Positions 13,429 through 50,305 of a stretch of DNA of 64,000 nt are shown here, piece after piece (the first letter of the stretch is position 1; each line of letters starts with the position of its first letter). Both the position numbers and the translations under genes were made by a program. This stretch comes from Acidobacteriota bacterium (lineage in GTDB: Bacteria; Acidobacteriota; Blastocatellia; RBC074), in NCBI GenBank assembly GCA_016196035.1, contig JACPYM010000059.1, positions 52,528-116,527 of the forward strand, given 5' to 3'. The notes below the pieces were generated by a model, which made no database searches, was not told the DNA's origin, and saw nothing but the letters and a program-made list of their open reading frames with translations.

Positions 13429-13536
13429 CCCTGGGTACGCAGCGCTTCCAGCGTGCAGTTTCGGCGGCAGACGCCTTCCTGCCGGAAGGAAAAGGTCAAT
13501 TGCCGAGACTGCACGCTGGAAGCGCTGCGTACCCAG
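13429..13536. repeat. Family A palindromic element copy A1 (29-bp inverted arms CCTGGGTACGCAGCGCTTCCAGCGTGCAG)
   Basis: Perfect inverted arms flanking ~50-nt loop with inner CCTTCC..GGAAGG hairpin, immediately after transporter stop. Confidence 0.8.
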
Positions 13537-13553
13537 ATTTGTTTGGAGTCTGC

Positions 13554-15920
13554 ATGATACGCATCGCAAAGTTCATCAGCGCCGCGCTGCTCATCACGGC
13601 TCTTGCCCAAGCCCAACAAATCAGAAACGCCGTCCCCGATGTCGCGCGTCCGTTACCGCTGTCAGCCGTGCGCTTGACCGGCGGGCCGCTCAAAGTGGCG
13701 CAGGATTTGGATGCCGACTATCTGTTGAAACTCGAACCGGATCGGATGCTGGCGTTTTATCGCAAACGCGCGGGCTTGCAAGCCAAAGCCGAACCCTATG
13801 GCGGTTGGGACGGCGATGGCCGCAATCTGACGGGCCACATTGCCGGGCATTACCTTTCTGGCGTGAGCATGATGTACGCCGCGACGGGCGATGCGCGCTT
13901 CAAAGAGCGCGTTGAATATCTAGTCCGTGAAATGAAAGAAGTGCAGGACAAGCACGGCGACGGCTATCTGGGTGCGCTGGCGAACGGCAAGGAGCAGTTC
14001 ATCGAAGTCTCGAAAGGCAATATCCGCTCGGCGGGGTTTGATCTGAATGGCCTGTGGTCGCCCTGGTACGTCTTGCATAAAACCTACGCCGGCTTGCGCG
14101 ACGCCTATCGTTACGCGGGCAATCGCACGGCGCTCGATCTGGAAATCAAATTCGCCGCCTGGGCCGAAAGCATCGTCGGCAAGCTGGATGACGCCCAATT
14201 GCAGAAGATGCTCAACACCGAATTCGGCGGCATGCCCGAAGTGCTGGCTGACTTGTATGTCGACACCGGCGACAAGCGCTGGCTCGATCTTTCGCATCGC
14301 TTCGATCATCGCGCCGTGCTTGACCCGCTGGCGCGCAAAGAAGACATCCTGAACGGGCTGCACGGCAATACGCAGGTGCCGAAGATTCAAGGCTCGCTGA
14401 TGCGCTACGCCTACACGGGCGATAAGCGCGACGGCGACGCGGCGCAGTTCTTTTGGGAAGCCGTCGCCAAGCATCACAGCTTCGCCACCGGCGGCCACGG
14501 CAAGGATGAATACTTCGGCCCGCCGGACGTGTTGAGCGACCGTATTGACGGGCGCACGGCGGAAACCTGCAACGTCTACAACATGATCAAAATGTCGCGG
14601 AAGCTCTTCGCTCTGCATCCCGACAACCAATACGCCGAATTCCACGAACGCGCGCTCTTCAATCACATTCTCGGTTCGATAGACAATCAGGACGGGCGGA
14701 CGTGTTATATGGTGCCGGTCGGACGCGGCGTGCAACACGAATACGCCGACATGTTCCGCAGCTTCACCTGCTGTGTCGGTTCCGGCATGGAAAGCCACGC
14801 GCTGCACGGCGACGGCTTGTACTACGAATCGGGTGACAAGCTGTGGGTCAACCTTTACGCGCCCTCGACGGCGAAGTGGGAAGCGGCGGGCGTTGACCTG
14901 ACGATGGACACGGCCTTTCCCGAAGGCGAGGCGGCCACGCTGAAACTGACGCTCAAAGCGCCTAAACAATTCACGCTCGCCTTGCGCCGACCGTCGTGGG
15001 CAGATGCGGGCTTCGCCGTCAAGCTCAACGGCCAACCCGTCAAGCAACTCGCCCAGCCGGGCGCGTATGTCGAACTCAAACGCAACTGGAAGAGTGGCGA
15101 CACGGTGGCGCTGACGTTGCCGAAAAAGCTGCGCCTGGAACCGTTGCCAGATAACCCGCACGTGACGGCGATTATGTGGGGGCCGCTGGTGCTGGCCGGT
15201 GATCTAGGCCCCGAACGCGCGCGTGGCCGTGGCCCGCAAGCCGCTGGTGCAACGCAACCGCTCAGCATTCCCTCGTTGGTTGCCGCTGACCGTCAATTAA
15301 ACGATTGGATCAAAGCCGTCGCCGATAAACCGGGCGATTTCCGCACCACTGGCGTCGGGCGCGAACAGGATGTCGAACTCGTGCCGTTTTATCGCCTGCA
15401 TCGGCGCACCTATTCCATCTATTTCGATCTGTTCACGCCTGCCGAATGGGAAAAGAAGGCCGCCGACTTGCTCGCCGCCCGCGAACGCCAACGGAAGCTG
15501 GAAGCGGCGACACTGGGCTTCGTGCAACCCGGCGAAATGCAACCCGAACGCGACTTCAACCAACAGGGCGAAGAAACCCAACCCGTGCGCACCGCTGGCC
15601 GCGCCGGTCGCAGCGCCAAGAAATGGTTCTCCTTCGATCTGCCGGTTGAGCCGGCGCATCCGTTGAAACTGATTGCCACCTACCACGGCGAAGAGCGCGC
15701 CACGCGCACCTTCGAGATTTTGGTGGACGGCACGCGCATTGGCGAACAACGCATCGAACGCCATCGCCCCGGCAGCCCGACCAAGAGCTTTTTCGATGTT
15801 GAGTATGCTGTCCCGGCTGAGTTGGTGAAGGACAAACAAAAAGTCACGGTGCGCTTTCAGGCGATGGGGGGGAATGAAACGGCGGGGGTGTTTGGCGTCC
15901 GGCTGGTGCGCGCGGATTAG
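13554..15920 (+). CDS. Secreted glycoside hydrolase family 127-like (DUF1680, beta-L-arabinofuranosidase-like) protein
   Basis: Signal peptide, ~789 aa, DUF1680-like conserved Cys cluster 'FTCCVGSG'; family assignment from memory, not searched. Confidence 0.5.
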   Translation: MIRIAKFISAALLITALAQAQQIRNAVPDVARPLPLSAVRLTGGPLKVAQDLDADYLLKLEPDRMLAFYRKRAGLQAKAEPYGGWDGDGRNLTGHIAGHYLSGVSMMYAATGDARFKERVEYLVREMKEVQDKHGDGYLGALANGKEQFIEVSKGNIRSAGFDLNGLWSPWYVLHKTYAGLRDAYRYAGNRTALDLEIKFAAWAESIVGKLDDAQLQKMLNTEFGGMPEVLADLYVDTGDKRWLDLSHRFDHRAVLDPLARKEDILNGLHGNTQVPKIQGSLMRYAYTGDKRDGDAAQFFWEAVAKHHSFATGGHGKDEYFGPPDVLSDRIDGRTAETCNVYNMIKMSRKLFALHPDNQYAEFHERALFNHILGSIDNQDGRTCYMVPVGRGVQHEYADMFRSFTCCVGSGMESHALHGDGLYYESGDKLWVNLYAPSTAKWEAAGVDLTMDTAFPEGEAATLKLTLKAPKQFTLALRRPSWADAGFAVKLNGQPVKQLAQPGAYVELKRNWKSGDTVALTLPKKLRLEPLPDNPHVTAIMWGPLVLAGDLGPERARGRGPQAAGATQPLSIPSLVAADRQLNDWIKAVADKPGDFRTTGVGREQDVELVPFYRLHRRTYSIYFDLFTPAEWEKKAADLLAARERQRKLEAATLGFVQPGEMQPERDFNQQGEETQPVRTAGRAGRSAKKWFSFDLPVEPAHPLKLIATYHGEERATRTFEILVDGTRIGEQRIERHRPGSPTKSFFDVEYAVPAELVKDKQKVTVRFQAMGGNETAGVFGVRLVRAD

Positions 15921-16126
15921 CAGCGCTGAGTTGCTTAGACAGGCTTTTTCCAGCCGAGACGAAGTGGTGATTCGAATCTATGACCCGTGACAAACGAGTT
16001 GCTGATTTCGACAATCTCTATACGGCTGATTTCGAAGCGAGCGGCCAGCCGCGCAATTGTTCAACACGCTATTGGCTGCGCAGCCCGCGAGCTATTGCAG
16101 CGGCGGCGGGACAGCGTTTTCAGTTG

Positions 16127-16753
16127 TCACTCCCTGACACAGCGAACGGAAAATGCTCTCGGCTTCTCGCCACCGCTTTGACGATGGAGAGCTTGCCCGC
16201 CTTTACCAAAGTTGTAGTACCAGCCACTGGCCGGATCAATCTCTGATGCCGTCCAGTAGAATCCGTGGGCTTCCAATCGTGCATACTGGCCGTCAGCGGA
16301 GCGGCCACCGCCGAGCAAGGCCTTGAATCCCGCGCTGCCTCCGGCCAAGAGCGCCTGGTACGCTGCTTTACCCTTGTCCTCCGAATCCTCGCTCACGCCA
16401 CCGTAGGGCTTCGCCATCTGCCGCCATTCGTCGTCCGTCGGCAATCGCCAGCCATCACCCAATGCTTGACATCCGCGCCGCGCCGACTCCCACGTGTACA
16501 AACGGCCATACTGACGGCAATTCGGCTCCGCATCTTCGTAGCAGTAGGACGGGACAGTCTTGACGTTCAGATTGTCTGTCGTCCACTGTTTGCCGTCCGC
16601 CATCCGCTTGGCGGACGGTAGCGTGCCGGACGCTTGTGGGGCTTGCGCTGAAAAGCGCTCCAAGGACGCGTTCATAGATGCGAACGCAATACTCAGCGCG
16701 ATTGATACGGCACAAACTCGAATCAGCCTGGTTTTGCGATTAACGCTAATCAT
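16127..16753 (-). CDS. Fibrobacter succinogenes major paralogous (FISUMP, TIGR02145) domain protein, secreted
   Basis: 'CYEDAEPNCRQYGRLYTWESA ... GWRLPTDDEWRQM' hallmark motif; signal peptide. Confidence 0.7.
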   Translation of the reverse strand: MISVNRKTRLIRVCAVSIALSIAFASMNASLERFSAQAPQASGTLPSAKRMADGKQWTTDNLNVKTVPSYCYEDAEPNCRQYGRLYTWESARRGCQALGDGWRLPTDDEWRQMAKPYGGVSEDSEDKGKAAYQALLAGGSAGFKALLGGGRSADGQYARLEAHGFYWTASEIDPASGWYYNFGKGGQALHRQSGGEKPRAFSVRCVRE

Positions 16754-16871
16754 AAATAAGCCCCACCGCGTGCTGAACCATTCTACACACGGCGTTGGTC
16801 TGAAACATCACTAGCAAAAACTGCTTTCACGGCAAGCAACATGGGCTTCCGCTTGCTTCCACATCACCGCC

Positions 16872-19709: not shown

Positions 19710-19774
19710 AGCGGATTGGTTTCCTCCTTCAAGTGCAGGGAAAACGATGTGTGCGATGCGGCGTACTAAGCTGG

Positions 19775-21607: not shown

Positions 21608-21618
21608 GGCAGGCCTTT

Positions 21619-22013: not shown

Positions 22014-23558
22014 TTACTGTAGCCGCAATCGCAGAATCGTCAGCGAGTGCGCCGGGAAGGTGTAGTTGAATCCATTGTTTTCAACCGTCGCCGTCAGGTT
22101 GCGCGTGACGGGGCGAACTTTCTTGTCGTCGCCAAACGTGTGCGTCGCTTTCAAATCGGGATGGTTCAACTCCCACACGCCGACGGCGTTCGTCAATTGG
22201 CCTTCCTGATTATCAATGCGCGTCGTCAGGTCTTTGTCCTTGCTGCGATTCAGCACGTTGACGAAGAGCGTTTTCTCAGCCGCGTTGTAGGTCGTCGAAA
22301 CATCCAGATATTTCAGTGGCGGGCGATTGCCGACTTTATAGGTCGGCGCCGACACCAACACATTGAGCGCTTGATTGCCTTTTTGTTTGGCGAATTCCGC
22401 CAGCGGGAAATAGATCGTCTGCAAAAACAGCCCTTGTTTATTGGTCGTAATCGGCGCGATGACGTTGACCATCTGCGCCAGGTTCGCCATCTTGACGACA
22501 TCGGCGCGGCGGAAAAACGAATTGAAAAACATGCCCATCGCCAGCGCGTCTTCAAAGTGGTAAACCTCTTCCAGCTTCTCGCGGTTGCCCGTGCGATACC
22601 AGACGTTCCATTCGTCGTAGGCAATGTAAAACGGGCGCGGATTCGGATTGCCCACTTGCGCCTGTTTGATCAGTCCGGCGGTGACTTCGATGTAATTGTC
22701 AAGCGTCTGCGACCAGGCCAGAAACCGCTCAAAATCGTTGTCGCGGTTGTTGATGTAAGTATGCAACGCGATGTAATCCGCCGTGTTCTTGAGCGTGTTG
22801 ATGACGGTGCGATTCCAGTGAATCCAATCCGCACCGTAATTGCTCGAACCGCTGGCAATCAACTTGATGCTTGAATCGGTCGAGCGCATGGCCTTGGCGG
22901 CTTCGAGCGCGAATTTGGAATACTCTTCGGCGCTCTTGTTGCCGAGTTGCCAGGGGCCGTCAATCTCATTGCCGAGCGCCCAGTATTTGACTTTGTATGG
23001 CTGCTCGCGCCCATTCTTGCGGCGCTGATCGGCCCAGTACGTATGGCGCGCTTCGTTGCAGTATTCGACCCAGTGCCGCGCGTCATCAATCGTGCCGAGA
23101 CCCGCGTTGATGCAGATGTATGGCTCGGTGCCGATCGTCTCGCAATACTTCAAAAACTCATCCGTGCCGAAGCGATTGCTTTCCAGATCGTCCCACGCCA
23201 AATCTTTGCGCACGGGGCGCTGATCTTTCGGGCCGATGCCGTCTTTCCAGTTATAACCCGAAGCGAAGTTGCCGCCCGGCCAGCGCAAAATCGAAACGTT
23301 CAATTGCTTGACGACCTCCATCACGTCTTTGCGATAGCCGTCTTTGTCGGCGAGCGGGCTGCCTTCTTCATAAACGCCGCCGTAAATCATCCGCCCCAGG
23401 TGCTCGGCGAAATTGCCGAAGAGCAGCGGGCTTACGTCGCCGATGGTGCGGTCAATGTCTATCTTGATGCGGGCCTGCGGCGCTTGCGCTTTGGCGGCAG
23501 GTAAACTGATCGTGACAAAGAGAAGGGCAAACAGGCATAGAGTAAGTAGCGTGCGCAT
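22014..23558 (-). CDS. abfA: GH51 alpha-L-arabinofuranosidase, secreted
   Basis: Signal peptide; '[16 protein letters not shown]', '[12 protein letters not shown]' catalytic-region motifs typical of GH51 AbfA. Confidence 0.85.
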
Positions 23559-23584: not shown

Positions 23585-23690
23585 CCTGGGTACGTAGCGC
23601 TCAGCGTGCAGTCTCGGCATGAGATATTTTCCTTCCGGTAGGAAGGCGTCCGATGCCGAGACCGCACGCTGGAAGCGCTGCGTACCCAGG
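23585..23690. repeat. Family A palindromic element copy A2
   Basis: cctgggtacgtagcgctcagcgtgcag ... cgcacgctggaagcgctgcgtacccagg. Confidence 0.8.
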
Positions 23691-23700: not shown

Positions 23701-26028
23701 TCACAATTTCACTTCAAGTGGGCGTCCGGCAAAAACAACCTGGTGCGCTGCCTTTTCGCCCGCAAGGCGGATTTCAAGTCTACGTTGTTGCGGCGTTGGC
23801 GGCTTCGAGCTATTTGCCAGCCGCAACGAAAGCGTGCGGCGCGCATTGTTCCAGTTGATTTGAATCTTTGTGAACTCGCCGCGCTGGTAATTGAAGGTCG
23901 CGCCGTCGTCTTCATACAGCGTGAACACGCCGTCTGCGCCGGGATAAACGACCAGCGTCAACGGGCCATCAACCTTTTCGCTGGTGTATTGCTTGACCGG
24001 GTCAAGTGGAAGGATCGCGCCGGCGCGCACATACAGGGGCATCGTCGCCAGATCAACGGCTTTGCTGATTTCGCGTCCGCCCGCGAGTTTTTCTTCCGTC
24101 CAGAAGTCGTACCAGTCGCCGCGCGGCAAATAGACGTTGCGTGAAGTCGCGCCTTTTTCGACGACGGGCGCAACCAACACATCGCGTCCCCACAAGTATT
24201 CATCGCCGCGCAACACCGCCGTCGCATCGTCGGGATAATGCAGCCAGAGCGCGCGCATCACCGGCAAGCCCGTTTCGTGCGTTTCGCGCACGGCGGAATA
24301 CAAGTACGGCATCATGCGATAGCGCAATTCCAAATACTTTTTGCAGATTGGCTCGACTTCGGCGTTGTGCAATTCGCTCAAATCGGGATTGGCCGCGCCG
24401 CCCGTGTAATTCGAGATTTCGTTATGCCCAAGCTCACCCGTATTCCAGCCCCACGGCAAGCGCAAATGCCACGTCCGCCCGTGCGCGCGAAAGAGCGGGC
24501 AGAACGCGCCGAATTGAAACCAGCGCACGTGCAATTCGCCCGTATATTCTTTGGTTGGGACGAAGCCGCCGATGTCTGTGCCCCACCACGGAATGCCTGT
24601 CAATCCGGTGTTCACGGCGATGGGGACGTGAACTTTCAAGGTTTCCCATGTCGAATAGACATCGCCTGACCAGAGGAATCCGGCGAAGCGTTGCATCCCC
24701 GCGTGGCCGTTGCGATGCAGCGCAAACACACGCTGATTCGGACGCAAGGCTTGCGAGCCGTCGTAATACATCCGAATGCGCGCCAGCCGTGATGTCGCAT
24801 CCAGTCCATCGCCCTGATCCGGCCACCAGCCGTCAATGCCCGCGTCGTAAAGCGTTTTGTGAACAGGCCAGTAACACGCGACCTGACGGTTGTCGGGCCA
24901 TTTGCCATCGGGCGTGCGACCGCTCGGCAACGGCGCAGCAGTGCAGGCGTCTTTGACCGTGCCAGTTAATTTTCGGCCTTCGATGACGGTGTGCAGCACG
25001 ACTTTGAAATGCTGGTCGTGTAATTCGTCAATCATCTTTTTCGGCTCAGGGAAGTTCTTCGGATGCCACGTGAATTCGCCGTTGTGTGTGTTCCAACCCG
25101 AAGGCGTGAAATCGGTGCCGAGATAGATCAACGCATCGCACGGCAATTTCTTTTCGCGCAGCGTGCGCGCCACCCATTTGATTTCGTCAGGCCCTGCGAG
25201 CGTGCGATGCGATTGCAAATAGCCGAACGACCACAGCGGCGGCAATTCGGGCTTGCCTGTCAGCCGCGCGTATTCGGCCAGCACTTGCGCGGGTTCGGTT
25301 GCGCCGACGATGAAAACGTCTATCGGCAACGCGCCCAATTCCGTGCCCGCCAACGCGCCGGAGACGCTGCTCTCAGGGCGATCCGGCACGCGCGGCGTGA
25401 GCTTGCCTTCTTTGCCAGTCAGGTCAAACGAAACGAGCGGATGCTGAATCAACAGCGCCCAACCGCCCGTGCCGATGAGCCATTGAATCGGCACGCGTCC
25501 GCCGTGCGTGCGCAAGCGATAGCCGCCCTGCCCGTTGCGGTTGGTATACGTTTCGCCGCGCCGGTCGAATTGTGGGCCGCCTTCGCCAAAACCGAGCACA
25601 GGTTTGTCGCCAATCTGAAACGTCAGCGCACCCGTTTGCACGTCGGGGCGTAACTCTTGCACCAACCGCCCGTCTTTGGCTTCGATGCGGATGGTGAGTG
25701 GTTCCGGTGACAGCTTCACACGCAAATCGCCACAGCGCACCGTGCGTTCGCGGGGGAGTGAGGTCAGCCGGGCAACAGGCGCAGGCCAGGTTTGCGGGGC
25801 CAGCGAACCGTCTTCGGGCAAGGGCAGTGGTCGGCCATTTTCGAGTGCCGCGATGGTTAGCCGCAGAGTCTGGGCGCTGACCGAAGTGAGCGCGATTTCG
25901 ACGGCCTTGCCGGCAAGGCGTAAGGCGGCGTCCTGCTCCGGCGCAGGCAGATGAGTGTTCAACAGCGCGCCAGCGCCTGCCGTGCTGAAACGCTTCAATG
26001 CTTCCCGGCGCGTGATAGGTTTTTTCAT
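23701..26028 (-). CDS. GH31 family glycoside hydrolase (alpha-xylosidase/alpha-glucosidase-like), Tat/Sec-exported
   Basis: 'GIDGWWPDQGDG' and 'WWGTDIGGF' GH31 catalytic-region motifs; start at MKKPITRREALK (ATG 26028). Confidence 0.75.
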   Translation of the reverse strand: MKKPITRREALKRFSTAGAGALLNTHLPAPEQDAALRLAGKAVEIALTSVSAQTLRLTIAALENGRPLPLPEDGSLAPQTWPAPVARLTSLPRERTVRCGDLRVKLSPEPLTIRIEAKDGRLVQELRPDVQTGALTFQIGDKPVLGFGEGGPQFDRRGETYTNRNGQGGYRLRTHGGRVPIQWLIGTGGWALLIQHPLVSFDLTGKEGKLTPRVPDRPESSVSGALAGTELGALPIDVFIVGATEPAQVLAEYARLTGKPELPPLWSFGYLQSHRTLAGPDEIKWVARTLREKKLPCDALIYLGTDFTPSGWNTHNGEFTWHPKNFPEPKKMIDELHDQHFKVVLHTVIEGRKLTGTVKDACTAAPLPSGRTPDGKWPDNRQVACYWPVHKTLYDAGIDGWWPDQGDGLDATSRLARIRMYYDGSQALRPNQRVFALHRNGHAGMQRFAGFLWSGDVYSTWETLKVHVPIAVNTGLTGIPWWGTDIGGFVPTKEYTGELHVRWFQFGAFCPLFRAHGRTWHLRLPWGWNTGELGHNEISNYTGGAANPDLSELHNAEVEPICKKYLELRYRMMPYLYSAVRETHETGLPVMRALWLHYPDDATAVLRGDEYLWGRDVLVAPVVEKGATSRNVYLPRGDWYDFWTEEKLAGGREISKAVDLATMPLYVRAGAILPLDPVKQYTSEKVDGPLTLVVYPGADGVFTLYEDDGATFNYQRGEFTKIQINWNNARRTLSLRLANSSKPPTPQQRRLEIRLAGEKAAHQVVFAGRPLEVKL

Positions 26029-26063
26029 GCGGGTGTCTCCTGACTGTGTGGTTCGCTCGCTGG

Positions 26064-26759
26064 TTATTGCCCCTGCTGCATAAACTCTTTCAGTTCGCGC
26101 CCGGCCTTGGCGATGTGTTCTTCCAATAACCGGCTGGCGGCGGCGGCCTTGCGTTGACGGCACAATTCCAGAATCGTGCGGTGCTCGTCCTTGGCATTGC
26201 GGTGGGCCGCGTGCGAGAACAGGATGTGCAGGCGAATATAACGGTCGGCGTTGTTGTTGACCGTTTGAATCAGCGCGAGGGAGCGCCCGCGGTTGGCCGC
26301 GGCATAGAGCGCCGAATGAAATTGCCAATGCAAATCGCCCCAGACATCGAAATCCGCTTCATGGTTGAGCGCGTGTTCATAGGCTTGCAACGCCGCTTCG
26401 GCGCGGGTCAGGTGGGCAGCGGTCAGATGCGGCACGGCGCGGCGCAGCGTCAGGCTTTCGAGCACAGCGCGAATCTCGAAGAGTTCTTGGATCTCCTCCG
26501 CCGAGAGCGCGGTCACCACCGCGCCGCGATGATCTTGAATTTCGATCAAGCCTTCGGCCTCTAATTGGCGCATGGCCTCGCGCAGGGGAATGCGGCTGAC
26601 GGCGAATTCCTCGGCAATGGCGTGTTGGCGCAACTGCGTGCCCTCGCGCAATTCGCCGCGCAAAATCTTGTTGCGCAAGCGGTCGGCCACGGCAGTGGTG
26701 AGCGTCTGGCGGGGTATCGCCTGGCGCGGGGTGAGACTTCCGTTGATTGGTTCACTCAT
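26064..26759 (-). CDS. GntR-family (FadR/FCD subfamily) transcriptional regulator
   Basis: N-terminal wHTH 'EEFAVSRIPLREAMRQLEAEGLIEI' plus FCD-type C-domain. Confidence 0.8.
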   Translation of the reverse strand: MSEPINGSLTPRQAIPRQTLTTAVADRLRNKILRGELREGTQLRQHAIAEEFAVSRIPLREAMRQLEAEGLIEIQDHRGAVVTALSAEEIQELFEIRAVLESLTLRRAVPHLTAAHLTRAEAALQAYEHALNHEADFDVWGDLHWQFHSALYAAANRGRSLALIQTVNNNADRYIRLHILFSHAAHRNAKDEHRTILELCRQRKAAAASRLLEEHIAKAGRELKEFMQQGQ

Positions 26760-26799
26760 GGTTGTTTCTCGCAGCAATGCTAGTGCTTTTCAAATTAGC

Positions 26800-27078
26800 T
26801 CGGCTTTCACTTCGGTGTATGGAAAAACCGCGCAGCGGACGGTACCGCGCGCGTGAGCAAGCGGAGCCTGGGCGGTTCGGCCAACGGCGTAAACTTGACG
26901 CGCCGCTTGCTCACGCGCGCGGTACCGTCCCGGCCGCCGCGCCGCTTGCTCACGCGCGCGGTACCGTCCCGGCCTCACGCGCGCGGTACCGTCCCGGCCG
27001 CCGCGCCGCTTGCTCACGCGCGCGGTACCGTCCCGGCCGCCGCGCTCCCGTAAACGCAATTGCAAACCGGTCTAAGAG
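26800..27078. repeat. Family B element copy B1: 27-bp inverted arms (GGACGGTACCGCGCGCGTGAGCAAGCGG) with ~3.7 tandem copies of a 37-40-bp unit
   Basis: Tandem units 26901..27045 (cgccgcttgctcacgcgcgcggtaccgtcccggccgc); conserved termini tttcacttcggtgtatgg / cgtaaacgcaattgcaaaccggtctaag shared with B2, B3. Confidence 0.75.
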
Positions 27079-28034: not shown

Positions 28035-28630
28035 AGCAGTTCCTTTCGATTGCCGAATCGCGCGCCGCGCCTGGCGCGGATTGAGGATGACGAAGGGCCT
28101 CATCCGCGCCAGGCGAAATGCCTGCTCAATACAATGCCGGCGAGCTTCATTTTCGCTTTGATAAAACGCTTGGATCTGCGGTCAGTGGAAATTGTATACA
28201 GTATGCGCGCGGGCAGCGTCAAGAAATGTAACCCGGCTTTGACGTGTTCTTAAGCCGGTACAACCGCCCGCCTAAACGTTCAAGACGGGCGTGCCATCTT
28301 CCGCTATCTACAGTCGCAGTCACCGTTCGCACGATTTTCCCATGGCAATAAATTTGGACAGGGCTTAAGCAATATGGAACGCGGGTGCTTTACCCGTCCT
28401 GCAAATTACTCGCAAACCCGCTGCGGGTAAAAAAAACTGCCCCACACCTTCAGGTTTTTTGCGAAAGTGCTGTCGGGAAGCAATGCCGAAATGTGAAGCA
28501 AGCGGAATACGCCTTGGTCTGTGCGGGTTTTTGTTTTGCAGCAGTGCGGTCGTGGAGTTTTGTGACCAGAGATTTTCGCCAGAGATCAGAGGCGGCCACC
28601 TGAAATAACAGCAAGAATTTGGAGAACAAG

Positions 28631-31600
28631 ATGAAACTACAACTGCCGGTCAGACTTGTTGCTATAGCAATCGTTCACGCCGTTGTTTTGACGGTGCTCT
28701 CGCTCACCACGTTTGCGCAAATCACGACGACAGGCATTCGTGGCATCGTGCGCGACCCCAACGGCGCGGTGGTGCCCAATGCCACGGTCAAAGCCACCGA
28801 TAACGCCACCGGGGTTGAGCAAACCACCGTGACTTCCAGTGACGGCGGGTTCATCTTTCCGGCCTTGCAGTTCGGCTCTTATAAAATCGCCGTCACCGCC
28901 ACTGGCTTTCAAAATTCGGTGATTGCGGCGGTCGTGGTGGAATCGGGCCGCACCACCAACATCTCGGTGGATTTGAATGTCGGCGCGGCCACCGATACCG
29001 TCCAAATCGCCGCCAGCGCCGAACAACTCAACACCACCACCGCCGAAGTCGGCAGCACGATCAACAACAAGCTCGTCCAGAATCTGCCCTACGCCGGGCG
29101 CGACAGCTTGAATTTCGCCGTGCTAATCGCGGGCAGTTCGCGCAGCACCAGCGACCGCAACAGCACCTTTAACGGGTTGCCCAACGCCTCGCTCAACATC
29201 ACGCTCGACGGCATGAATAACAATTCGCAGCGCTTCAAGAGCGGTGGCACCAGCTTTTTCGCCTTCGCCCCGGCGCGCATTGACGCCATCGAGGAAGTCA
29301 GTGTTTCGACGACGGGCCTCGGCGCGGATGCGGGCGGCGAGGGCGCGATGCAGATTCGCATGACGACGCGGCGCGGCACCGAGCAATATCACGGCAAGAT
29401 TCTGTATCAGGGCATCAACGAAGCGCTCAACGCCAATACCTTTTTCCGTAATATGGCAAGCCTGCCGCGTAACAAAGCGCGCCAGCATAATCCGGTCGGC
29501 GCTATCGGCGGCCCGTTGGTGCCGTTTTCGAAGCGGCTCAAGAACAAGCTGTTTTTCTTTGCCTATTACGAAGCCCAGCCGCAACCCTTCACCCAGACCT
29601 ATTCGACGCCGGTGCTGACGACGGCGGCGCAGCAGGGCAACTTCACCTATCTGGGCACCGACGGCCAGGAGCGCACCGTGAACTTGCTGGACATCGCGCG
29701 CGTGGCGGGTCACACCGGCACGGTTGATCCCACGATGATGGGCATCCTGGGCAAGATCAACAGTTCGCAATCGGGTGCTTCAGGTTTCCAGGCCATCTCC
29801 GGCGTCTCGACGAAGTTCATGCAAAACATGCTCTGGGATCAAGCGCTCACGACGATGCAGGCTTTCCCCACGGCGCGCGTGGATTTCCAAATCAAGCCGT
29901 CCGTCGGCTGGCACGGCACGTGGAATTTGCGCCACAGCGATTTCACCAAAGGCTCGGTGCCGTATCCCGGCAGCCCCTATGATTTCGTCGGCCCGGCGGG
30001 CATCAACAGTCACTCTTCGGCGACGCCTTATATCGCCACCAATGCCGTGGATTGGACGATCAGACCGAACATCACCAACAACGCCAACCTCGGCATCCAG
30101 GGCACGAACGAATACTTCTTTATTGACGCCGATCCGAAACGCTTTGCCGAATACAACAACCGCATCATCAACACGCCGTTGGTCGGCCTTTACATCCCCA
30201 ACGTGAATACCGATGTGCGCAACAATCCTGTCTATCAATTCACCGACAATCTGAACTGGGTCAAGGGGCGGCACACGCTGACGATGGGCGGCACCTGGTT
30301 GCACACGACGTTCTATTCGCACACCTGGGGCACGGCGGGCGTGCCGCAATATAACTTTGGCGTCGTTACCGCCGACCCGATCAACAACGTGTTGCGCAAT
30401 GCGCTGACCAACGTCAACACCAACAACAACGACATCGCCAACGCGCTGAATCTCTACGCCTTGCTGACGGGCCGCATCACCAGTGTCTCGGTCGCGACGA
30501 ACGCGGATGAGAAGACCAAAGAATACCGCCCGTTTAGCGAGAGTATGCAGCGTTATGCCTTCACTACTTTCGGGCTTTACTTCCAAGACAGCTTCCGTAT
30601 GCGCCCGTCACTGACGTTGAATTACGGGTTGCGCTGGCAATTCGACGGCGACGTTCACAGCGGCAACGACTTGCTCTCGCAACCGAGCGGGTCGAATTTC
30701 TATGGGCCATCCACGGGCTTGTTCCAACCGGGCGTGCTGAGCAGCAATCAGAATCCGCAATTCGAGCAGGTGATTCACCCCTACAAACGCGATTACATGA
30801 ACCCCGCGCCGAATTTCGGCTTTGCCTGGAACCCGGCCTTTGAGAACGGCTGGCTCGGCAAGGTATTGGGCGAGCGTAAGTCGGTCATTCGCGGTGCGTA
30901 CTCGATCACCTTTTACAACGAAGGGCTGAACTCGATTTCCAATTCGCTGTCGGGCGGACGCGGTCTGACGCAAACCGGCACGGCGACCAACGGCGTCAAC
31001 TTTACGCCCGGCTCGCTCGAATTGCGCAGCCCCGCGCCGGCGATTCCGGTCTTCCCGGCGAAGTTCGGCTTCCCGATTGCGCAAAATTCATTTTCAGCGC
31101 CAGTCCCGGGCAATTACATCAACCCGGAATTGCGGTCGCCTTACGTGCAAAACTGGAGCCTGGGCATTCAACGCCAACTCACGAAAAGCACCGTGCTTGA
31201 ACTGCGCTACGTCGGCAACAAGTCCACGCATATGTGGCACCGCCAGAACATTCAGGAGGTCAACATCTTCGAGAATGGCTTCCTGAATGAATTCGTGCAG
31301 GCCAAGAAGAACCTCGACATCAACATTGCCAACGGGCGCGGGCAGACTTTTGCCAACAACAATCTGGCGGGGCAGGCGGCGCTACCGATCCTTCAGGCCG
31401 CGTTTGGCGCGCTGGGCAATCAGGCTGCGCTGACTGCCGCGCAAGGCTTCGGGAATGCGACTTTCATTCAGAATTTGAATCAAGGCGTGGCGGGCACGCT
31501 CGCGCAATCGCTGGCGACCAGCCCGACGAATTTCTGTCGGCTGGTCGGCAATAAAGTCGCTTCCTGCGTTACCGCCGGGTTCAATGTGGCGGGCGCCTAT

Positions 31601-32490: not shown

Positions 32491-32614
32491 CCTGGGTACG
32501 CACCGCTTCCAGCGTGCAGGCTTGGCATAAGACCGGCTGCGGCTGAAAGGAAATCCCTGCGGCCTTCATCCGTCTCTCGCCAAATCTGCACGCTGGAAGC
32601 GCTGCGTACCCAGG
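32491..32614. repeat. Family A palindromic element copy A3
   Basis: cctgggtacgcaccgcttccagcgtgcagg ... ctgcacgctggaagcgctgcgtacccagg directly after transporter stop. Confidence 0.8.
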
Positions 32615-34590: not shown

Positions 34591-34627
34591 TACACGGGCA
34601 TAGGTTGAGCTTTTTCGGAGGGCAGAA

Positions 34628-34726
34628 GAGAGATTACGGAACTGACGGAAATAACGGAACAGACAGAAGTCTTTCAGGTTTTCTTTTCCGTGTGTTCCGT
34701 TATTTCCGTCTGTTCCGTAATCTCAA
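34628..34726. repeat. Family C hairpin element copy C2
   Basis: gagattacggaactgacggaaataacggaacagac ... ttccgtgtgttccgttatttccgtctgttccgtaatctc. Confidence 0.7.
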
Positions 34727-34840
34727 AAAAGTCCTGGCTGAAAAGCTCAATCTATGACCGTGCGCGGTATCGCGCTCCCGGTTCTGTACTTGCACTCGTT
34801 TCAAACCTTCAATCACAAACCTGCCAGAAAATTCCCGCCC

Positions 34841-34861
34841 GATGACTTAAGTCACTGCCAA
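34841..34861. promoter_or_regulatory. Candidate operator: GATGACTTAAGTCACTGCCAA (perfect 12-bp palindrome TGACTTAAGTCA) ~90 bp upstream of ric
   Basis: 23-nt stretch identical to 38256..38278 upstream of flavoprotein-Rieske operon. Confidence 0.45.
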
Positions 34862-34940
34862 GCCGTGCCCTGCCGCCTACACTGCACGCATCGTCAAACT
34901 ATCTCAATACTTCTTGGTGAATCACTTGCAGGAGGCATTT

Positions 34941-36572: not shown

Positions 36573-36665
36573 CGCTGATGTTTTGATGCGCCGCGTCTTT
36601 GGAGCGCGTGCGGCACCGGCTGCCGCTTTGGCATCTCTTTGATCGTTCATACATCAAGGAAATAC

Positions 36666-36840
36666 TAGAGCGGTTTGCAGTTGCGTTTACGGGAGTCAGT
36701 TGACATTGGGACAGTACCGCGCGCGTGAGCAAGTGGCGCGTCAAGCTTGCCCCCTTGGCTGAATTGCCAAAGCGCCGCTTGCTCACGCGCGCGGTACTGT
36801 CCCGCTGCGCGGTTTTCCCGTACACCGTAGTGAAAACCGC
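36666..36840. repeat. Family B element copy B2 (inverted orientation, no tandem expansion)
   Basis: Termini are reverse complements of B1 termini; internal gacagtaccgcgcgcgtgagcaagtgg / ccgcttgctcacgcgcgcggtactgtc inverted arms. Confidence 0.7.
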
Positions 36841-36922
36841 TCTGAAGCGGCAGCCGGTGCCGCACGCACTCCAAAGGCTGCGCCTAGCCGATTTGCCCTC
36901 ATGGAATCGCGGGTAAATAACA

Positions 36923-38113
36923 ATGAAGCGTTGGCATAGCATCCTGGCAATCCTCTTCGTCCCGCTCCTCGTCGCGGGCGGCGGATTGCTAGTGCGGCAT
37001 CTCGCGCGCGAACGCACCGAACGCGGCCATTTCGAGCGTAGCGAAACCGAGTTGATGGTGACCAATCTGGCGCGCGTGCCGGTGCAGTTGTTCAAAGCGG
37101 GCCGTAACTTGGCCGAGGCGCAACTGCTCAATGATTTCGACGGCGCGCGCCGCTGGCTGTCAGGGGGCAATCACTTTCTGAAAGCCAACTTCCCCCACCG
37201 CGAAGTTTTTTATCCTATTCCTCTCATCGGTTATCGGCGCGGCCCCGATGCCGAAGGTGCATTCATCATCACAATTCGTTCGCTGAATGAGATGGAACCG
37301 CCAAGCGCAGCCAACGGGCAACACGGCTGGGCGTTCATCCCGAATGGCAGCTTCCTGTTGGGCGACCGGCAAAACCCGCGCGAGCCGCATTATGTCTGGC
37401 TGCCAGGCTTTTTCATCGGCAAGTTTGAAGTGAGCAATGCCGAATACACCGAGTTTCTACGCGCTCCGCAGGGCTACGCTGACGATGCGCAGTGGACGGA
37501 AGCCGGGCGCGTATGGAAGGCCGCGAATACTTCGCAAAGCAGCGCCTTGCTCAAATCGGTTGCGGCGGAATTCGAACGCTTCGGCCAACCCGATCAGCCG
37601 GTGACGGGGGTAACGTGGTTCGAGGCGCAAGCCTATTGCCGCTGGCTGACCAGTCGCTTTGGCGAACGGAAATGGCTTTACGCGCTGCCTTCAGAAGCCG
37701 AATGGGAAAAGGCTGCACGCGGGCCAGATGGTTTTGATTTTGCGCTTAGCCAGACGCTCAGCGATCAAGAGGTACAGCTTTACAATTGGAGGAAGAACCC
37801 CGACGCGCCCGTCACAGTCGTCGGAGCAGCCGAAACGCCCGCGCTTTATCTACCAAACCGCTTCGGCATTTTTCACCTCGGCGGCAATGTCGTCGAGTGG
37901 ACGAGTTCGATCACCAACCCCTTTAATCGCGAACATCTTTACCTCGATGAAGAGCGCAACCGCCTCGAAGGCGGTGAAGAGCGCGTGGCGCGTGGCGGTT
38001 CGTGGTATAGCGCGAGCATCGCCTTGCTGGGTGTGGCCTATCGCGACTCGTTTCGGCCTGAGATCACGCATCACGATTTGGGCTTTCGCATCGTGGCGCG
38101 ACCGCTGCCCTAA
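36923..38113 (+). CDS. FGE-sulfatase (SUMF1/formylglycine-generating enzyme) domain protein with N-terminal membrane anchor; NirV-like
   Basis: 'GVTWFEAQAYCRWL', 'LPSEAEWEKAARG', 'RGGSWYS' FGE-domain motifs. Confidence 0.75.
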   Translation: MKRWHSILAILFVPLLVAGGGLLVRHLARERTERGHFERSETELMVTNLARVPVQLFKAGRNLAEAQLLNDFDGARRWLSGGNHFLKANFPHREVFYPIPLIGYRRGPDAEGAFIITIRSLNEMEPPSAANGQHGWAFIPNGSFLLGDRQNPREPHYVWLPGFFIGKFEVSNAEYTEFLRAPQGYADDAQWTEAGRVWKAANTSQSSALLKSVAAEFERFGQPDQPVTGVTWFEAQAYCRWLTSRFGERKWLYALPSEAEWEKAARGPDGFDFALSQTLSDQEVQLYNWRKNPDAPVTVVGAAETPALYLPNRFGIFHLGGNVVEWTSSITNPFNREHLYLDEERNRLEGGEERVARGGSWYSASIALLGVAYRDSFRPEITHHDLGFRIVARPLP

Positions 38114-38257
38114 CCTGGGAGCGCAGGCATCCCGCCTGCCGTCAAACAAAGCCGCGTAGCATCCTTATCTTGACGAAAAGGGTAAGGATGCTGCGCGCTT
38201 TTCTTATTTGCAGGCGGGACGCCTGCGCCCCCAGGAAATGCAAATAAATTTCGCACC

Positions 38258-38278
38258 GATGACTTAAGTCACTGCCAA
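38258..38278. promoter_or_regulatory. Candidate operator copy 2: GATGACTTAAGTCACTGCCAA ~150 bp upstream of flavoprotein gene
   Basis: Identical to 34841..34861. Confidence 0.45.
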
Positions 38279-38423
38279 CCGCCGCCCACCCGCGTAATTT
38301 ACGCTTTGACCAAGACCAACAATCCGGTCAGTTCCCTTCGACCCACTCGCGGAAGTCAGTGCGAGCCGAGCCGAATTTACGCAATCCAGGTAGCCCGAAA
38401 TTGGGCGGTTTGAGGCTGGCGCT

Positions 38424-42436: not shown

Positions 42437-43660
42437 GTGTTCAGCAAAGACGCCATCAAAATTTACCTGCTCGGTGTGGTGATGCTGGCCGTGACGGGGT
42501 TCATTTTCTGGGACAACGTGCTGCCTGAATGGAGCGGCTATCAGAGCGATTTCCGCGCGCTGGTCGCCAAGAAATTCGGCGCGGCGCGCGCGGCGGCGGT
42601 GCCCAGCGGCCTGCATCAGATTTGGGTGAAAGACCTCGACCGCGTAGACCGTTGCACGACCTGTCATCAGGGCATGGAATGGAAAGGCCTGGAAAGCGCC
42701 GCGCAACCGTTTCGTTCGCACCCCACCGAAATTCTGAAAGCGCATCCGCTGAATCAATTCGGCTGCACGGCCTGTCACGGCGGGCAAGGTTATGCCACTG
42801 ATCTCGCCGGCGCGCACGGGCAGGTCGAACATTGGGAAGAGCCGCTGCTCGGCAAAAAAGTCAGCGACACCTATCTGGTCAAAGACAAGAAAGCGCTGAT
42901 GCAGGTCAATTGCAATTCCTGTCATCGCTATGAACGCGAAACCAAAGGCGCCGATTACATCAACGAAGCCAAGCAAATCGTGCAGGAAAAAAACTGCCGC
43001 GCCTGCCACACCATCAACGGACGCGGCGGCACCATCGGCCCCGACCTCACCAACGTCGGCGACAAAGCGCCGGAGCAATACGATTACGGTCACGTGTCGG
43101 GGGTGAAAACAGCGTTCGCCTGGCATGTCGCACATTTGCAAAAACCGAAAGCGATGACGCCGGATACGGTCATGCCCGATTTCAATTTCTCTACGCGGCA
43201 GGCGCAGGCGTTGTCCTTGCTTGTCATGAGTTGGAAACGCGCGACGGTGCCGACGCGCTACATCCCCGGCGCGACGCCCAAGGATGTGCCGACGGCGGAA
43301 GAGATCGCCAAAGAGAAACGCATGCTCGAAGGCGAAGGCGCTTTCTTCGTCAAGAAGGGCTGCTTTATCTGCCATTCCGTGGATTCGCTGGGTATTGAGA
43401 ATTCGGCCAAGATCGGGCCGGATTTGTCCGAGGCTGTAACGGACGTGCAGAGCCGCTTTGGCCGCACGCTGGAAGATTTTTTGAAAGCGCCCAACGGTAC
43501 GATGGCCGTGGTGTTGGCGACACAGATTCATTTGACTGACGACGAGAAACGCGAGGCGGTCGAACGTTTGAAGATCGCTTATCAACGCAAGCAGGAGGGC
43601 GCGAAGCCGAACGCTGCGCCCACGCCTGCGGCCTCGCCGTCACCGGTAGCGAAGAAATAA
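42437..43660 (+). CDS. Membrane-anchored pentaheme c-type cytochrome
   Basis: Five CxxCH motifs (CTTCH, CTACH, CNSCH, CRACH, CFICH); N-terminal TM helix. Confidence 0.75.
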   Translation: MFSKDAIKIYLLGVVMLAVTGFIFWDNVLPEWSGYQSDFRALVAKKFGAARAAAVPSGLHQIWVKDLDRVDRCTTCHQGMEWKGLESAAQPFRSHPTEILKAHPLNQFGCTACHGGQGYATDLAGAHGQVEHWEEPLLGKKVSDTYLVKDKKALMQVNCNSCHRYERETKGADYINEAKQIVQEKNCRACHTINGRGGTIGPDLTNVGDKAPEQYDYGHVSGVKTAFAWHVAHLQKPKAMTPDTVMPDFNFSTRQAQALSLLVMSWKRATVPTRYIPGATPKDVPTAEEIAKEKRMLEGEGAFFVKKGCFICHSVDSLGIENSAKIGPDLSEAVTDVQSRFGRTLEDFLKAPNGTMAVVLATQIHLTDDEKREAVERLKIAYQRKQEGAKPNAAPTPAASPSPVAKK

Positions 43661-43803
43661 CCTGGGTTCGCACGCTTCCCAGCGTGCTGTAAAAAAGTCG
43701 CGCAGCGTTCCGAATAAATTCAATTGGGTCGCACGCGATTTAGGGAAAAGGAAGGCTGCGCCGCTTCTTTCATAGCACGCAAGGATGCGTGCGTACCCAG
43801 GGA
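43661..43803. repeat. Family A palindromic element, degenerate copy A4
   Basis: cctgggttcgcacgcttcccagcgtgctg ... gcgtgcgtacccaggg. Confidence 0.6.
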
Positions 43804-45744: not shown

Positions 45745-45750
45745 TGAGGA

Positions 45751-45884
45751 GACCTCAGACCTCAGACTTCAGACCACAGACCTCAGACCTGTCTTGGATC
45801 GGCGGCCACAGGCGAATTGAGATCGTAGGTCTGAAGTCTGAAGTCTGAGGTCTGAGGTCTGAAGTCTGAGGTCTGAGGTCTGTG
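45751..45884. repeat. Heptamer-repeat hairpin: (CAGACCT)n arm, ~35-nt loop, (AGGTCTG/AAGTCTG)n arm ending at nosB-like start codon
   Basis: gacctcagacctcagacttcagaccacagacctcagacctg ... aggtctgaagtctgaagtctgaggtctgaggtctgaagtctgaggtctgaggtctg. Confidence 0.8.
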
Positions 45885-46517
45885 ATGAAAAGCTGGCTCG
45901 ACAACGCGAACCATTTTTTTGAACTGCCGCTCACGCTGCGCAGCCGCGTGCTGATTCTGGTGGGTGTAGTGCTGTTGACGCCGGTCTTTCTGTTCCCCTT
46001 GTGGAATATGACCTTCAAGTCGAATCAGTATCTCGACGGACTGACGCTCAACATTTACGCCTATCAACTCAAAGGCGGCATGACGCCGAACCGCGATGAT
46101 TTGCGCGAGATCAACTCGCTCAATCATTACATCGGTATGCGTCCGCTGTTGGAAAGCGATTTCGGCGAATTCGTCTGGATTCCCTTTGTCATCGGGGTGC
46201 TGGGCGTGCTGGCGTTGCGCGCTCTGGTCATCGGCAAGATGGCCGGGCTGGTGGATGTCTTTGTGATCTTCACCTATTTCGGGCTGTTCTCGTTCTGGGG
46301 CTTTTACAACAAGCTCTATGCGTATGGACACCATCTTGATCCGACGGCGGCGATCAAGGTGCCGCCGTTCACCCCGCCGCTGCTGGGGACGCAAGTCGTC
46401 GGCAACTTTACGGTGTCGAGCTATCCGGGCGTCGCGTCGTTTGCGCTGGTGTCGTTTGCCGTGTTGTTGCTGGCGGCCATCTTTCTGTCGCGCAAGCAGA
46501 CGAACGAGGCGGCGTGA
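45885..46517 (+). CDS. Polytopic membrane protein, NosB-like (clade II nos accessory)
   Basis: 4-5 TM helices, position directly downstream of nosZ and 4-bp overlap with nosD; assignment by synteny. Confidence 0.5.
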   Translation: MKSWLDNANHFFELPLTLRSRVLILVGVVLLTPVFLFPLWNMTFKSNQYLDGLTLNIYAYQLKGGMTPNRDDLREINSLNHYIGMRPLLESDFGEFVWIPFVIGVLGVLALRALVIGKMAGLVDVFVIFTYFGLFSFWGFYNKLYAYGHHLDPTAAIKVPPFTPPLLGTQVVGNFTVSSYPGVASFALVSFAVLLLAAIFLSRKQTNEAA

Positions 46518-47914: not shown

Positions 47915-47915
47915 A

Positions 47916-48836: not shown

Positions 48837-48839
48837 ATT

Positions 48840-49298
48840 ATGCCGAGACCGTTTGAGAGAAAACACTGCGTCATTCTTTTTGCCGCAGCCCTCTGGCTGC
48901 TCGCGGCTTGCCAAAGCCACAAACTGGAACCCGCCGCCCTGTCGCCTGAAGATATGTGCACCGATTGCAAGATGGCGATTTCAGAAAAGCAATTCGCCGC
49001 GCAATACCTGACCAAAGATGGCGAGGCCGTTAAATTCGATGACCTCGGCTGTCTGGCGCGTTATCTGAAAAGTCACCCGCAACAACGCGCCGAAAGCGCG
49101 GCCTTTTTCGTGATGGATTACGAAACGAAACAATGGCTCAACGCCGAGTCCGCGTTTTACGTCAACTCCGATAAATTCCAAACGCCAATGCGTGGCGGCT
49201 TTGCGGCCTTCAGTACACGTCAACGCGCCGAGGCCGCTGCTGCTGCCAAACAAGGCCGCTTGTTCACTTGGCAGGCAGTGCTGACCAACGCCAAATAG
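48840..49298 (+). CDS. nosL: Copper chaperone lipoprotein NosL
   Basis: Lipobox 'LLAAC', 'CTDCKMAIS' Cu-binding region, ~150 aa, follows nosF with 3-bp gap. Confidence 0.8.
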   Translation: MPRPFERKHCVILFAAALWLLAACQSHKLEPAALSPEDMCTDCKMAISEKQFAAQYLTKDGEAVKFDDLGCLARYLKSHPQQRAESAAFFVMDYETKQWLNAESAFYVNSDKFQTPMRGGFAAFSTRQRAEAAAAAKQGRLFTWQAVLTNAK

Positions 49299-49470
49299 TC
49301 TCTAGGGTTGCGCAAAATGGCCGCGCGAAAATCCTGGCCGGAATGACATCTGAAATCCCGCAACTTCCCGTAGTTAAAAGCGAGCTAGGCAGTTGTCTCT
49401 AGTCGCGCCGGTGGCGGCGGTCGGAATCGCGGCAGAAAAAAATAGTTAAATTGAGTGGGGAGAAGGATTT

Positions 49471-50271
49471 GTGATGACGCAAATGGAGGCAAAAGAATTA
49501 GTCCCTTTGCACGCGCTCGGCGCGCTCGATGCCGTCACGGCGGGCGAAGTGGAACGCTATCTGCGCCAAGCCTCGCTGGAAGAGCAGCGCGAGGCGGCGG
49601 AGTTTCGCGAAGTAGCCGCGCTCTTGCCCTTCGCTTTGCTGTCGCCCGCCGTGCGGCCCGCCTTAAAAGGCCAATTGCTCGGACGAATTAATGAGGGAAT
49701 GCTGGCGTCGAGCCGTCCCGCAACAGTCACAGGCGGCCAGGTCTTGGAATTCAAGCTGCGCGCGCGCGCTGAACGCTCCTGGTCGCAAAATTTTTCGCAG
49801 TGGCTGGCAGTCGCGGCTTCATTGATATTGGCGGCAGCGAGCGCGCTGTTTTTTTGGCAGAACCGCCAGCTCAAGAACGAACGCGCTCAGCTTGCGCAGC
49901 GCTTGCAGAGCGCGCAACAGACCATCGAACAGATGCAAGCGCCCACCACGCGCGTCCTCGCGTTAAAAGGCCAGGAAGCACCCCAGGCCAGCGCCAAAGT
50001 GTTTTGGGATACGACACGCCACGAATGGGTGATGCAGGTATTCAATCTGCCCGACGCGCCGCTGGCCATGGACTATCAGCTTTGGTACGTGACCAAAGAC
50101 GCCAAACTGAGCGCCGCCGTCTTTCGCCCCGATACGCAAGGGCGGGCCGAATTGCGCTTGTCGTTGCCGGGCGGCGTCGCCGAGAAACTGGCGGCGACGG
50201 CTGTGACGCTTGAACCGCGCGGCGGCTCGCCGCAACCGACCGGCAAATTCTATTTGCTGGCCCAGATTTAA
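49471..50271 (+). CDS. Anti-sigma factor (RskA-like), single TM, no adjacent sigma gene
   Basis: N-terminal 'ELVPLHALGALD..EVERYL' anti-sigma motif, central TM helix, C-terminal RskA-like periplasmic domain. Confidence 0.55.
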   Translation: MMTQMEAKELVPLHALGALDAVTAGEVERYLRQASLEEQREAAEFREVAALLPFALLSPAVRPALKGQLLGRINEGMLASSRPATVTGGQVLEFKLRARAERSWSQNFSQWLAVAASLILAAASALFFWQNRQLKNERAQLAQRLQSAQQTIEQMQAPTTRVLALKGQEAPQASAKVFWDTTRHEWVMQVFNLPDAPLAMDYQLWYVTKDAKLSAAVFRPDTQGRAELRLSLPGGVAEKLAATAVTLEPRGGSPQPTGKFYLLAQI

Positions 50272-50305
50272 GCTGGCTATGCACGCGGAGAAGCGTGCGT
50301 AGCCA
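50272..50305. terminator. Bidirectional terminator-like hairpin between convergent genes
   Basis: ctggctatgcacgc ggagaa gcgtgcgtagccag near-perfect 14-bp stem; arms resemble family A core. Confidence 0.55.

Follow-up and report, generated by a model that had tools for sequence, protein, structure and literature searches.

Paired palindromic repeats in a Blastocatellia contig: probable REPINs with RAYT genes beside their units in related genomes

The stretch considered here, 64,000 nt from contig JACPYM010000059.1 of an Acidobacteriota bacterium (Blastocatellia; RBC074; assembly GCA_016196035.1) and called the window below, contains six palindromic elements, every one of them intergenic with one overlapping a gene tail, and all six begin 0-10 nt past a stop codon. 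Five form a family, A, consisting of four inverted doublets and one single hairpin, and the sixth is a doublet of a sister family, B. These palindromes are very probably REPINs, that is doublets of repetitive extragenic palindromic (REP) units which form hairpins, non-autonomous and both spread and maintained in Blastocatellia by a REP-associated tyrosine transposase (RAYT, or TnpA-REP), an enzyme of the HUH/Y1 kind. The elements are as follows.

13430 to 13537, probable family A REPIN, copy 1: units 13430-13458 (plus strand) and 13509-13537 (minus strand), 50-nt spacer
23585 to 23690, probable family A REPIN, copy 2: intact unit 23662-23690 (minus strand), altered left unit 23585-23611
32491 to 32614, probable family A REPIN, copy 3: units 32491-32519 (plus strand) and 32586-32614 (minus strand), 66-nt spacer
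38114 to 38235, probable REPIN of sister family B: units starting at 38114 (plus strand) and 38235 (minus strand)
43661 to 43801, probable family A REPIN of a no-bulge sub-type: units starting at 43661 (plus strand) and 43801 (minus strand)
50272 to 50307, minus strand, single double-foot REP hairpin with a 14-15-bp stem: one unit, foot at both ends

An original prediction, made from the letters of the window, had described five palindromes with near-identical 29-bp inverted arms as a repetitive and possibly mobilisable family, and in these respects it stands: the 29-mer CCTGGGTACGCAGCGCTTCCAGCGTGCAG has 5 matches at up to one mismatch in the window and 0 in 100 shuffles, and the elements are inverted doublets of REP units which in relatives also flank a RAYT gene. 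The five copies are where they were placed, save that the first starts at 13430 and not 13429, and the sister doublet at 38114-38235 had been missed. The loops, predicted to be variable and 50-80 nt long, are spacers of 48-83 nt between the 29-nt arms and vary only in part: over 95 nt including the spacer, copies 1 and 2 are 86% alike, with an identical orientation relative to transcription. Pfam confirms the gene contexts that had been proposed, namely gene ends and spacers after both transporters, between glycosidase genes and before nosZ. Copy 1 lies between a transporter gene (9514-13419), whose stop is 10 nt before it, and a GH127 glycosidase gene, whose start (13554) is 16 nt beyond it, and a small CCTTCC/GGAAGG hairpin lies inside its spacer. 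Copy 2, whose left unit has one C>T substitution and a 2-nt deletion, is found between a GH31 gene (23701-26328, minus strand) and an alpha-L-arabinofuranosidase gene (22014-23558, minus strand), 10 nt past the GH31 stop. Copy 3 likewise follows a transporter gene (28619-32485), at 5 nt from its stop, and a gene for a 567-aa protein starts 19 nt beyond the copy (32634); a contig of GCA_016179065.1 (L201) matches copy 3 and the DNA on either side of it without a difference, and both transporter genes carry CarboxypepD_reg and OMP beta-barrel domains. The no-bulge doublet follows directly on the TAA of a cytochrome c gene (42437-43660) and is separated by 77 nt from nosZ (43879) downstream, and the family B doublet, with a 19-bp hairpin followed by a T-run in its spacer (38153-38197), abuts the TAA stop of an FGE-sulfatase-like gene (36923-38113). 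The single hairpin, whose minus-strand sequence is CCTGGCTAC-GCACGC-TTCTCC-GCGTGC-ATAGCCAGC, lies at the meeting point of the convergent genes 49471-50271 (plus strand, anti-sigma RskA-like) and 50277-51008 (minus strand, GDPD), the ends of which are 5 nt apart, and the last ten codons of the GDPD gene (FLATHASPRA) together with its TAG stop lie within it (50277-50307). Its membership of family A is less certain because the foot is off at one base and it is a single copy. Folded as RNA the doublets reach -81 to -91 kcal/mol with z from -8.8 to -15.4 (copy 1, -91 kcal/mol, z -15.4; copy 2, -88.7; copy 3, -87.3; the no-bulge doublet, -81, z -8.8; family B, -90.8), and the single hairpin -28.9 kcal/mol with z -6.9.

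The unit from which the doublets are built is 26-29 nt long, so within the 20-40 nt of the hairpin-forming palindromes recognised as REPs, and is made of a 9-nt 5' foot, CCTGGGTAC, and a G+C-rich hairpin of 7 bp, whose loop is of the TCC type and whose stem may carry a bulge of one base. In family A the hairpin reads GCA, an optional bulged base, CGCN, the TCC-type loop and then NGCGTGC. The arms of the no-bulge doublet are CCTGGGTTC-GCACGCT-TCCC-AGCGTGC at 43661 and CCTGGGTAC-GCACGCA-TCCT-TGCGTGC at 43801, so that the stems differ between the arms and each is complementary within itself, and those of family B are CCTGGGAGC-GCAGGC-ATCCC-GCCTGC at 38114 and CCTGGGGGC-GCAGGCG-TCC-CGCCTGC at 38235; the differences among these stems, including the GCAGGC/GCCTGC of family B, are compensatory. 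Covariation was tested on 234 instances, drawn from the window and from related loci, at the one stem position that the search pattern had left free, and the pair there is Watson-Crick in 228 of them (T-A 154, C-G 34, G-C 24, A-T 16). Counted over distinct sequences it is Watson-Crick in 33 of 39, whereas shuffles averaged 28% and never exceeded 51%. The free pair thus covaries in all four pair types and the hairpin is under selection.

When a gapped pattern of the unit was scanned over one genome per species in 8-kb blocks, the window's own genome not being among the blocks, at least 120 blocks from at least 35 metagenome-assembled genomes (MAGs) gave matches, with at least 21 blocks in one MAG, and 33 of the MAGs listed are Acidobacteriota, mostly labelled Blastocatellia. 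Further copies outside the window therefore exist at the level of the lineage, and a family that had been taken for genome-specific is spread over at least 33 Acidobacteriota MAGs, each with a dominant unit variant of its own: a bulged G in the window, and a bulged T, a bulged C, no bulge or other closing pairs and loops elsewhere. This is the pattern expected of within-genome amplification. Of the 235 units among the matches listed, 174 form 87 inverted doublets, which together with the folds in the window is the inverted pairing by which REPINs are known; again among the matches listed, the doublets fall into length classes of 87-89, 99, 103-106, 122-125, 139-142 and 152-154 nt, with the inner spacers varying by lineage and the terminal units kept. 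Two Logan contigs carrying the 567-aa gene (L202, L203) end 46-47 nt upstream of the gene start, in the right arm of the REPIN, as short-read contigs are expected to do at a multi-copy repeat. Single matches in a Bordetella and an Actinomycetes MAG (L020, L035) differ in stem and loop and were dismissed as chance matches, and a phage origin was rejected, a viral collection having given only 1 match in 2.9 million contigs. By megablast of the window against the listed blocks the sole match, at 88%, was to another repeat family. A literature search found no paper linking REP sequences to Blastocatellia.

The Blastocatellia REP family is also carried by several MAGs labelled 'Heliobacteriaceae' or 'Heliomicrobium' (CAYXVZ, CAYWDW, CAYLJQ, CAZRXE, CAZXZU and JAJNQA; loci L012, L019, L046, L054, L057, L077, L080, L104, L109, L115-L117 and L206), one of which, CAZXZU, encodes a homologue of the window's 567-aa protein that is 85% identical. 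These labels look wrong.

The gene that accompanies the units was found in relatives. With E. coli RayT from NC_000913 as query, phmmer gave only one match among all open reading frames (ORFs) of the loci (5.4e-9), to an ORF at 3989-4603 on the minus strand of locus L031, which is also one of six ORFs beside units that satisfy a loose HUH-motif regular expression. The protein matches the Pfam profile Y1_Tnp (1.8e-8) and the NCBIfam profile REP_Tyr_transpos (87.2 bits, cut-off 80), and in the PDB it matches by sequence 4ER8 only, which is E. coli TnpA-REP. Three tandem units stand just upstream of the ribosome-binding site of this gene and a doublet directly after its stop. The L031 protein was then used as query on metagenomes, which yielded 79 RAYT loci, and across the aligned RAYTs, E. 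coli RayT included, the HUH histidines H119 and H121, Tyr179 and N183-P184 are invariant, so that both the HUH motif and the catalytic tyrosine (Y...NP) are intact. Units of family A flank the RAYT gene, often on both sides, in 23 of the 31 loci at 60% identity or more and in 0 of the 48 loci at 57% or less; in L122/L149 the array is symmetric (+ + - gene + - - -). A RAYT flanked by its own units, the arrangement termed a REPtron (Ton-Hoang et al. 2012, cited in the review PMC6006769) by which REP/RAYT systems are defined, is therefore present in relatives of the window.

The other 8 close RAYT loci have variant units which fit their RAYT sub-clade. Loci L133-L138 and L155 carry CGGTAC-GCACTCC-TCC-GGAGTGC, and L141, whose RAYT is 62% identical to the family A RAYT, carries the family B unit CTGGGAGC-GCAGGCA-TCCC-TGCCTGC. 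More distant RAYTs have other hairpins again (L146, L148), and beside a RAYT of 44% identity (L158) the units are of the canonical-foot type, GTAG-TGCAGGCG. The type of REP thus follows the clade of RAYT. The genes flanking the RAYT loci are common to different metagenomes at 70-94% nucleotide identity, which fits vertical descent of the loci. In one RAYT sub-clade the gene itself contains a REP-like sequence, GGTACGCACGCC-GCT-GGCGGGC, in frame (L138, 1126-1152; L137, alignment columns 65-78), which shows in the protein as a small insert (…GTHAAG…).

Movement or copying of the units by the RAYT is inferred from its homology and its adjacency to them. An origin of another kind had been raised in the original prediction, that of a miniature inverted-repeat transposable element (MITE), in its classical form a deletion derivative of an insertion sequence (IS) moved in trans by a DDE transposase through its terminal inverted repeats and leaving target-site duplications. 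It is true that the elements are short, at 66-240 nt, that their terminal inverted repeats are near-perfect and that they occupy many unrelated loci. However, the outer boundary of the unit is sharp, with background composition beyond the first C in 289 distinct units; outside these units no target-site duplication, conserved flank or target motif was detected, and none was seen by inspection at the window copies. Moreover the sole gene family found repeatedly beside units is an HUH/Y1 and not a DDE transposase, and each arm is itself a covarying hairpin, so that recognition of single-stranded DNA fits better than that of a double-stranded inverted repeat. A classical MITE is thus extremely unlikely. 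Integron attC sites were also considered, on sequence alone, and set aside, the ends CCTGGG...CCCAGG having no GTTRRRY core and the elements being spaced at about 10 kb, with several genes in each interval. For REPINs served by a RAYT, the route would be that of E. coli TnpA-REP and of IS200/IS605: the RAYT would recognise foot and hairpin on single-stranded DNA, and would then cut and rejoin, with no target-site duplication left behind. Copies would survive where the harm is small, in short spacers behind stop codons of mostly co-directional genes.

Conservation of the 9-nt foot, at 91-99% across a bacterial class, is more than would be expected of a purely selfish repeat, and it is the observation that speaks for sites of a host DNA-binding protein, clustered and maintained because they organise the chromosome and not because they replicate as a population. 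For the bacterial interspersed mosaic elements (BIMEs) of E. coli, binding by IHF, gyrase or Pol I has been proposed. No specific binding protein is indicated by the present data, however, and a vertically inherited RAYT that reads the foot predicts equal conservation. The genome-specific dominant variants also point to turnover, as does one orthologous site (L078/L091) at which two genomes with flanks 91% identical differ in element size, 195 nt against 104 nt. Orthologous RAYT genes also differ in how many REP units stand beside them. Taken together this leaves the host-protein explanation very improbable.

Placement behind stop codons brings in a further explanation, in which the elements evolved in the host as RNA elements, whether terminators (as had been suggested earlier), attenuators or mRNA-stabilising 3' hairpins, and were spread by selection with only an incidental association with RAYT. 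The extreme stability of the RNA hairpins and the start of all six window elements just past a stop agree with it, as do about 12 of the 33 doublets that crude gene calls in the loci place between co-directional genes, these 12 being at most 15 nt from the upstream stop, and an enrichment of T-runs, seen at 31 of 207 element ends (15%) against 3.5% in random background. Yet 85% of the ends are without a T-run and no family A end qualifies in a terminator scan, in which only the inner hairpin of family B (38153-38197) does; on these grounds canonical Rho-independent termination is not supported. The elements are also symmetric and occur between divergent genes, Rfam at gathering thresholds gives 0 matches over the whole window, and the inner sequences are unconserved across lineages whereas the RAYT-type foot and hairpin are conserved, with the REP type tracking the RAYT clade. 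A host RNA element is accordingly quite improbable as the origin of the family, and effects on RNA are likely to be a consequence of the insertions and not the reason for its existence.

Such effects may nevertheless be real for REPINs that are transcribed. The very stable RNA hairpins formed would probably have side effects on the upstream cistron, on how stable its 3' end is, how it is processed or how its translation terminates. In E. coli, REPs protect upstream mRNA from 3' exonucleases. There, too, a REP at up to about 15 nt from the stop lowers expression of the upstream gene (Liang et al. 2015, as cited in PMC6006769). By analogy, hairpins 0-10 nt behind stops are likely to affect the expression ratio of neighbouring cistrons, protection from 3' exonucleases and lowered upstream expression are both plausible, and the 35-40-bp duplex is a possible RNase III substrate. 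The E. coli BIMEs resemble the present elements as inverted REP pairs between operon cistrons directly past stop codons, with no sequence similarity between the two.

The hairpins also touch on gene calling. The longest ORF for GH127 (13224-15920) extends back through copy 1, and gene calls for homologues of the 567-aa protein range from 548 to 639 aa (P0028, P0043, P0052 and others), that in L211 being about 36 codons longer than the window protein. Automatic start-codon calls beside intergenic hairpins are therefore unreliable.

Several observations weigh against the REPIN and RAYT interpretation and have to be set beside the evidence for it. The 64-kb window contains no RAYT gene, so the link to the enzyme rests on relatives. 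The canonical GT[AG]G is absent from the foot, which has GTAC in family A and GAGC in family B; that motif is missing from the REPs of some RAYT subclasses (PMC6006769) and so is typical and not universal. Arms within a doublet are not measurably more complementary than arms across doublets of the same MAG (p = 0.17), and as this arm-matching was without signal there is no independent evidence for the doublet, rather than the unit, as the copied entity. Copy numbers per genome are lower bounds, with the window's genome outside the count. By crude gene calls about 20% of doublets lie between divergent genes, hence placement is not strictly at 3' ends. Finally, among homologues of the 567-aa gene and by exact-protein look-ups no clean pair of filled and empty sites was found in near-identical strains: the look-ups gave identical configurations, contigs broken in the repeat, or no match. 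The homologues mostly lie behind an M24 peptidase gene and not the transporter gene. In the one syntenic relative, at 80% aa identity (L211), the junction of the transporter gene with the 567-aa gene is without a REPIN, and as it has a terminator-like hairpin of its own instead it is not a clean empty site.

A REPIN family and its cognate RAYT are widespread in Blastocatellia, and neither this kind of element nor its probable mechanism is new. In REPIN/RAYT systems hairpin-forming REP doublets are accompanied by a REP-associated tyrosine transposase (Bertels & Rainey 2011, PMC3116915; PMC3337134), and the likeness to them is extensive, covering a short palindromic unit with a 5' foot, inverted doublets, extragenic position, a genome-specific dominant sequence, a RAYT flanked on both sides by units, a separate REP type for each RAYT paralogue or clade, and the lack of target-site duplication. 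In contrast to the Gammaproteobacteria of those systems the hosts here are Acidobacteriota (Blastocatellia), and the unit is conserved over a whole class. The GTAC (GAGC in family B) that stands in place of GT[AG]G follows a conserved CCTGG, and the RAYT, at 204 aa, differs from E. coli RayT in some 60 additional residues that separate the first strand from the first helix.

Within the classification of Quentin et al. (2018, PMC6006769, Table 1) the TnpA-Y1 subclass 2.4, which is Bertels' RAYT Group 4, has 'long' and 'double-foot' REPs, a YIxNNP motif and a median length of 194 aa, and a REP inside the RAYT gene is unique to it. The RAYT here reads NHVH and YIENNP and is about 200 aa long, there is a double-foot hairpin at 50272-50307, and L137 and L138 have the in-frame REP-like stretch. 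In contrast, the W motif is WE, WA or WQ here and WQ throughout in subclass 2.4, and a C-terminal SS motif is present here which the same table lists for 2.1, 2.2 and 2.6. By motif reading the RAYT appears closest to subclass 2.4, with the W and SS motifs not fitting cleanly. Acidobacteria are also the source of TIRYTs and TIRtrons, tyrosine transposase genes with flanking inverted repeats (Di Nocera et al. 2013, PMC3733652). These share with the present system the host phylum, the flanking of tyrosine transposases by inverted repeats and, for some repeated families, occurrence as dimers or clusters. Their repeats are described as unrelated to REPs, mostly low-copy and in many cases with GGGGWSAS (PMC3733652), and it is this description that sets them apart from the REP-like covarying hairpin with a foot found here.

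The window holds other repeats. A third palindromic family, GGGACGGTACCGCGCGCGTGAGCAAGCGGCGCG, which also contains GGTAC, occupies 26795-27076, 36597-36876 and 63562-63613, with tandem copies at 39/25/64-nt spacing among them, has an 88% match in L075, and may be another REP family with a RAYT of its own. Just past nosZ (end 45744) a long palindrome of tandem 7-nt units (AGACCTC/AGACTTC ... GTCTGAG/GTCTGAA) covers 45750-45887, and a similar heptad-repeat palindrome, of TCCTGAG-type units, is found in an intergenic spacer of a related genome (L204, about 1330-1440). At 7687-7805 and 34618-34733, 27 kb apart, there is a palindrome of 9-nt periodic units (ACGGAA(A/C)NN / TTCCGTNNN), the two being 80-85% alike. 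A 58-nt direct repeat with 76% identity (34822-34879 and 38239-38296) includes the palindrome GATGACTTAAGTCACTG, lies in both cases upstream of plus-strand genes and may be an operator or promoter motif.

To our knowledge nearly all work on REPIN/RAYT systems has concerned Enterobacteria, Pseudomonas, Stenotrophomonas, Neisseria and a few other groups, and the present elements provide a clear and abundant example in Acidobacteriota, a dominant soil phylum that is little studied. For annotation, the repeats account for spurious N-terminal ORF extensions, a gene tail made by a REP and contig breaks in short-read MAGs. For the genes concerned, hairpins of -80 to -90 kcal/mol follow the stop codons of genes in transporter, glycosidase and cytochrome c/nosZ operons, and for the enzyme the match between RAYT sub-clade and REP sequence offers natural covariation data on how RAYTs read DNA. 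A broader proposition is possible but tentative, namely that this is an old, class-wide REPIN/RAYT system of Blastocatellia with a non-canonical foot (GTAC or GAGC for GTAG), a RAYT lineage marked by a long N-terminal insertion, co-diversification of RAYT paralogues with their REP types (A and B co-existing in the window), and a preference for settling 0-10 nt past stop codons in operons for polysaccharide uptake and nosZ. If that is true, and if the RAYT belongs to a REP-poor group (Group 4, or Group 1/TIRYT), REPIN populations would range well beyond Proteobacteria, and the Blastocatellia would offer a soil-bacterial model of long-term REPIN-RAYT co-evolution.

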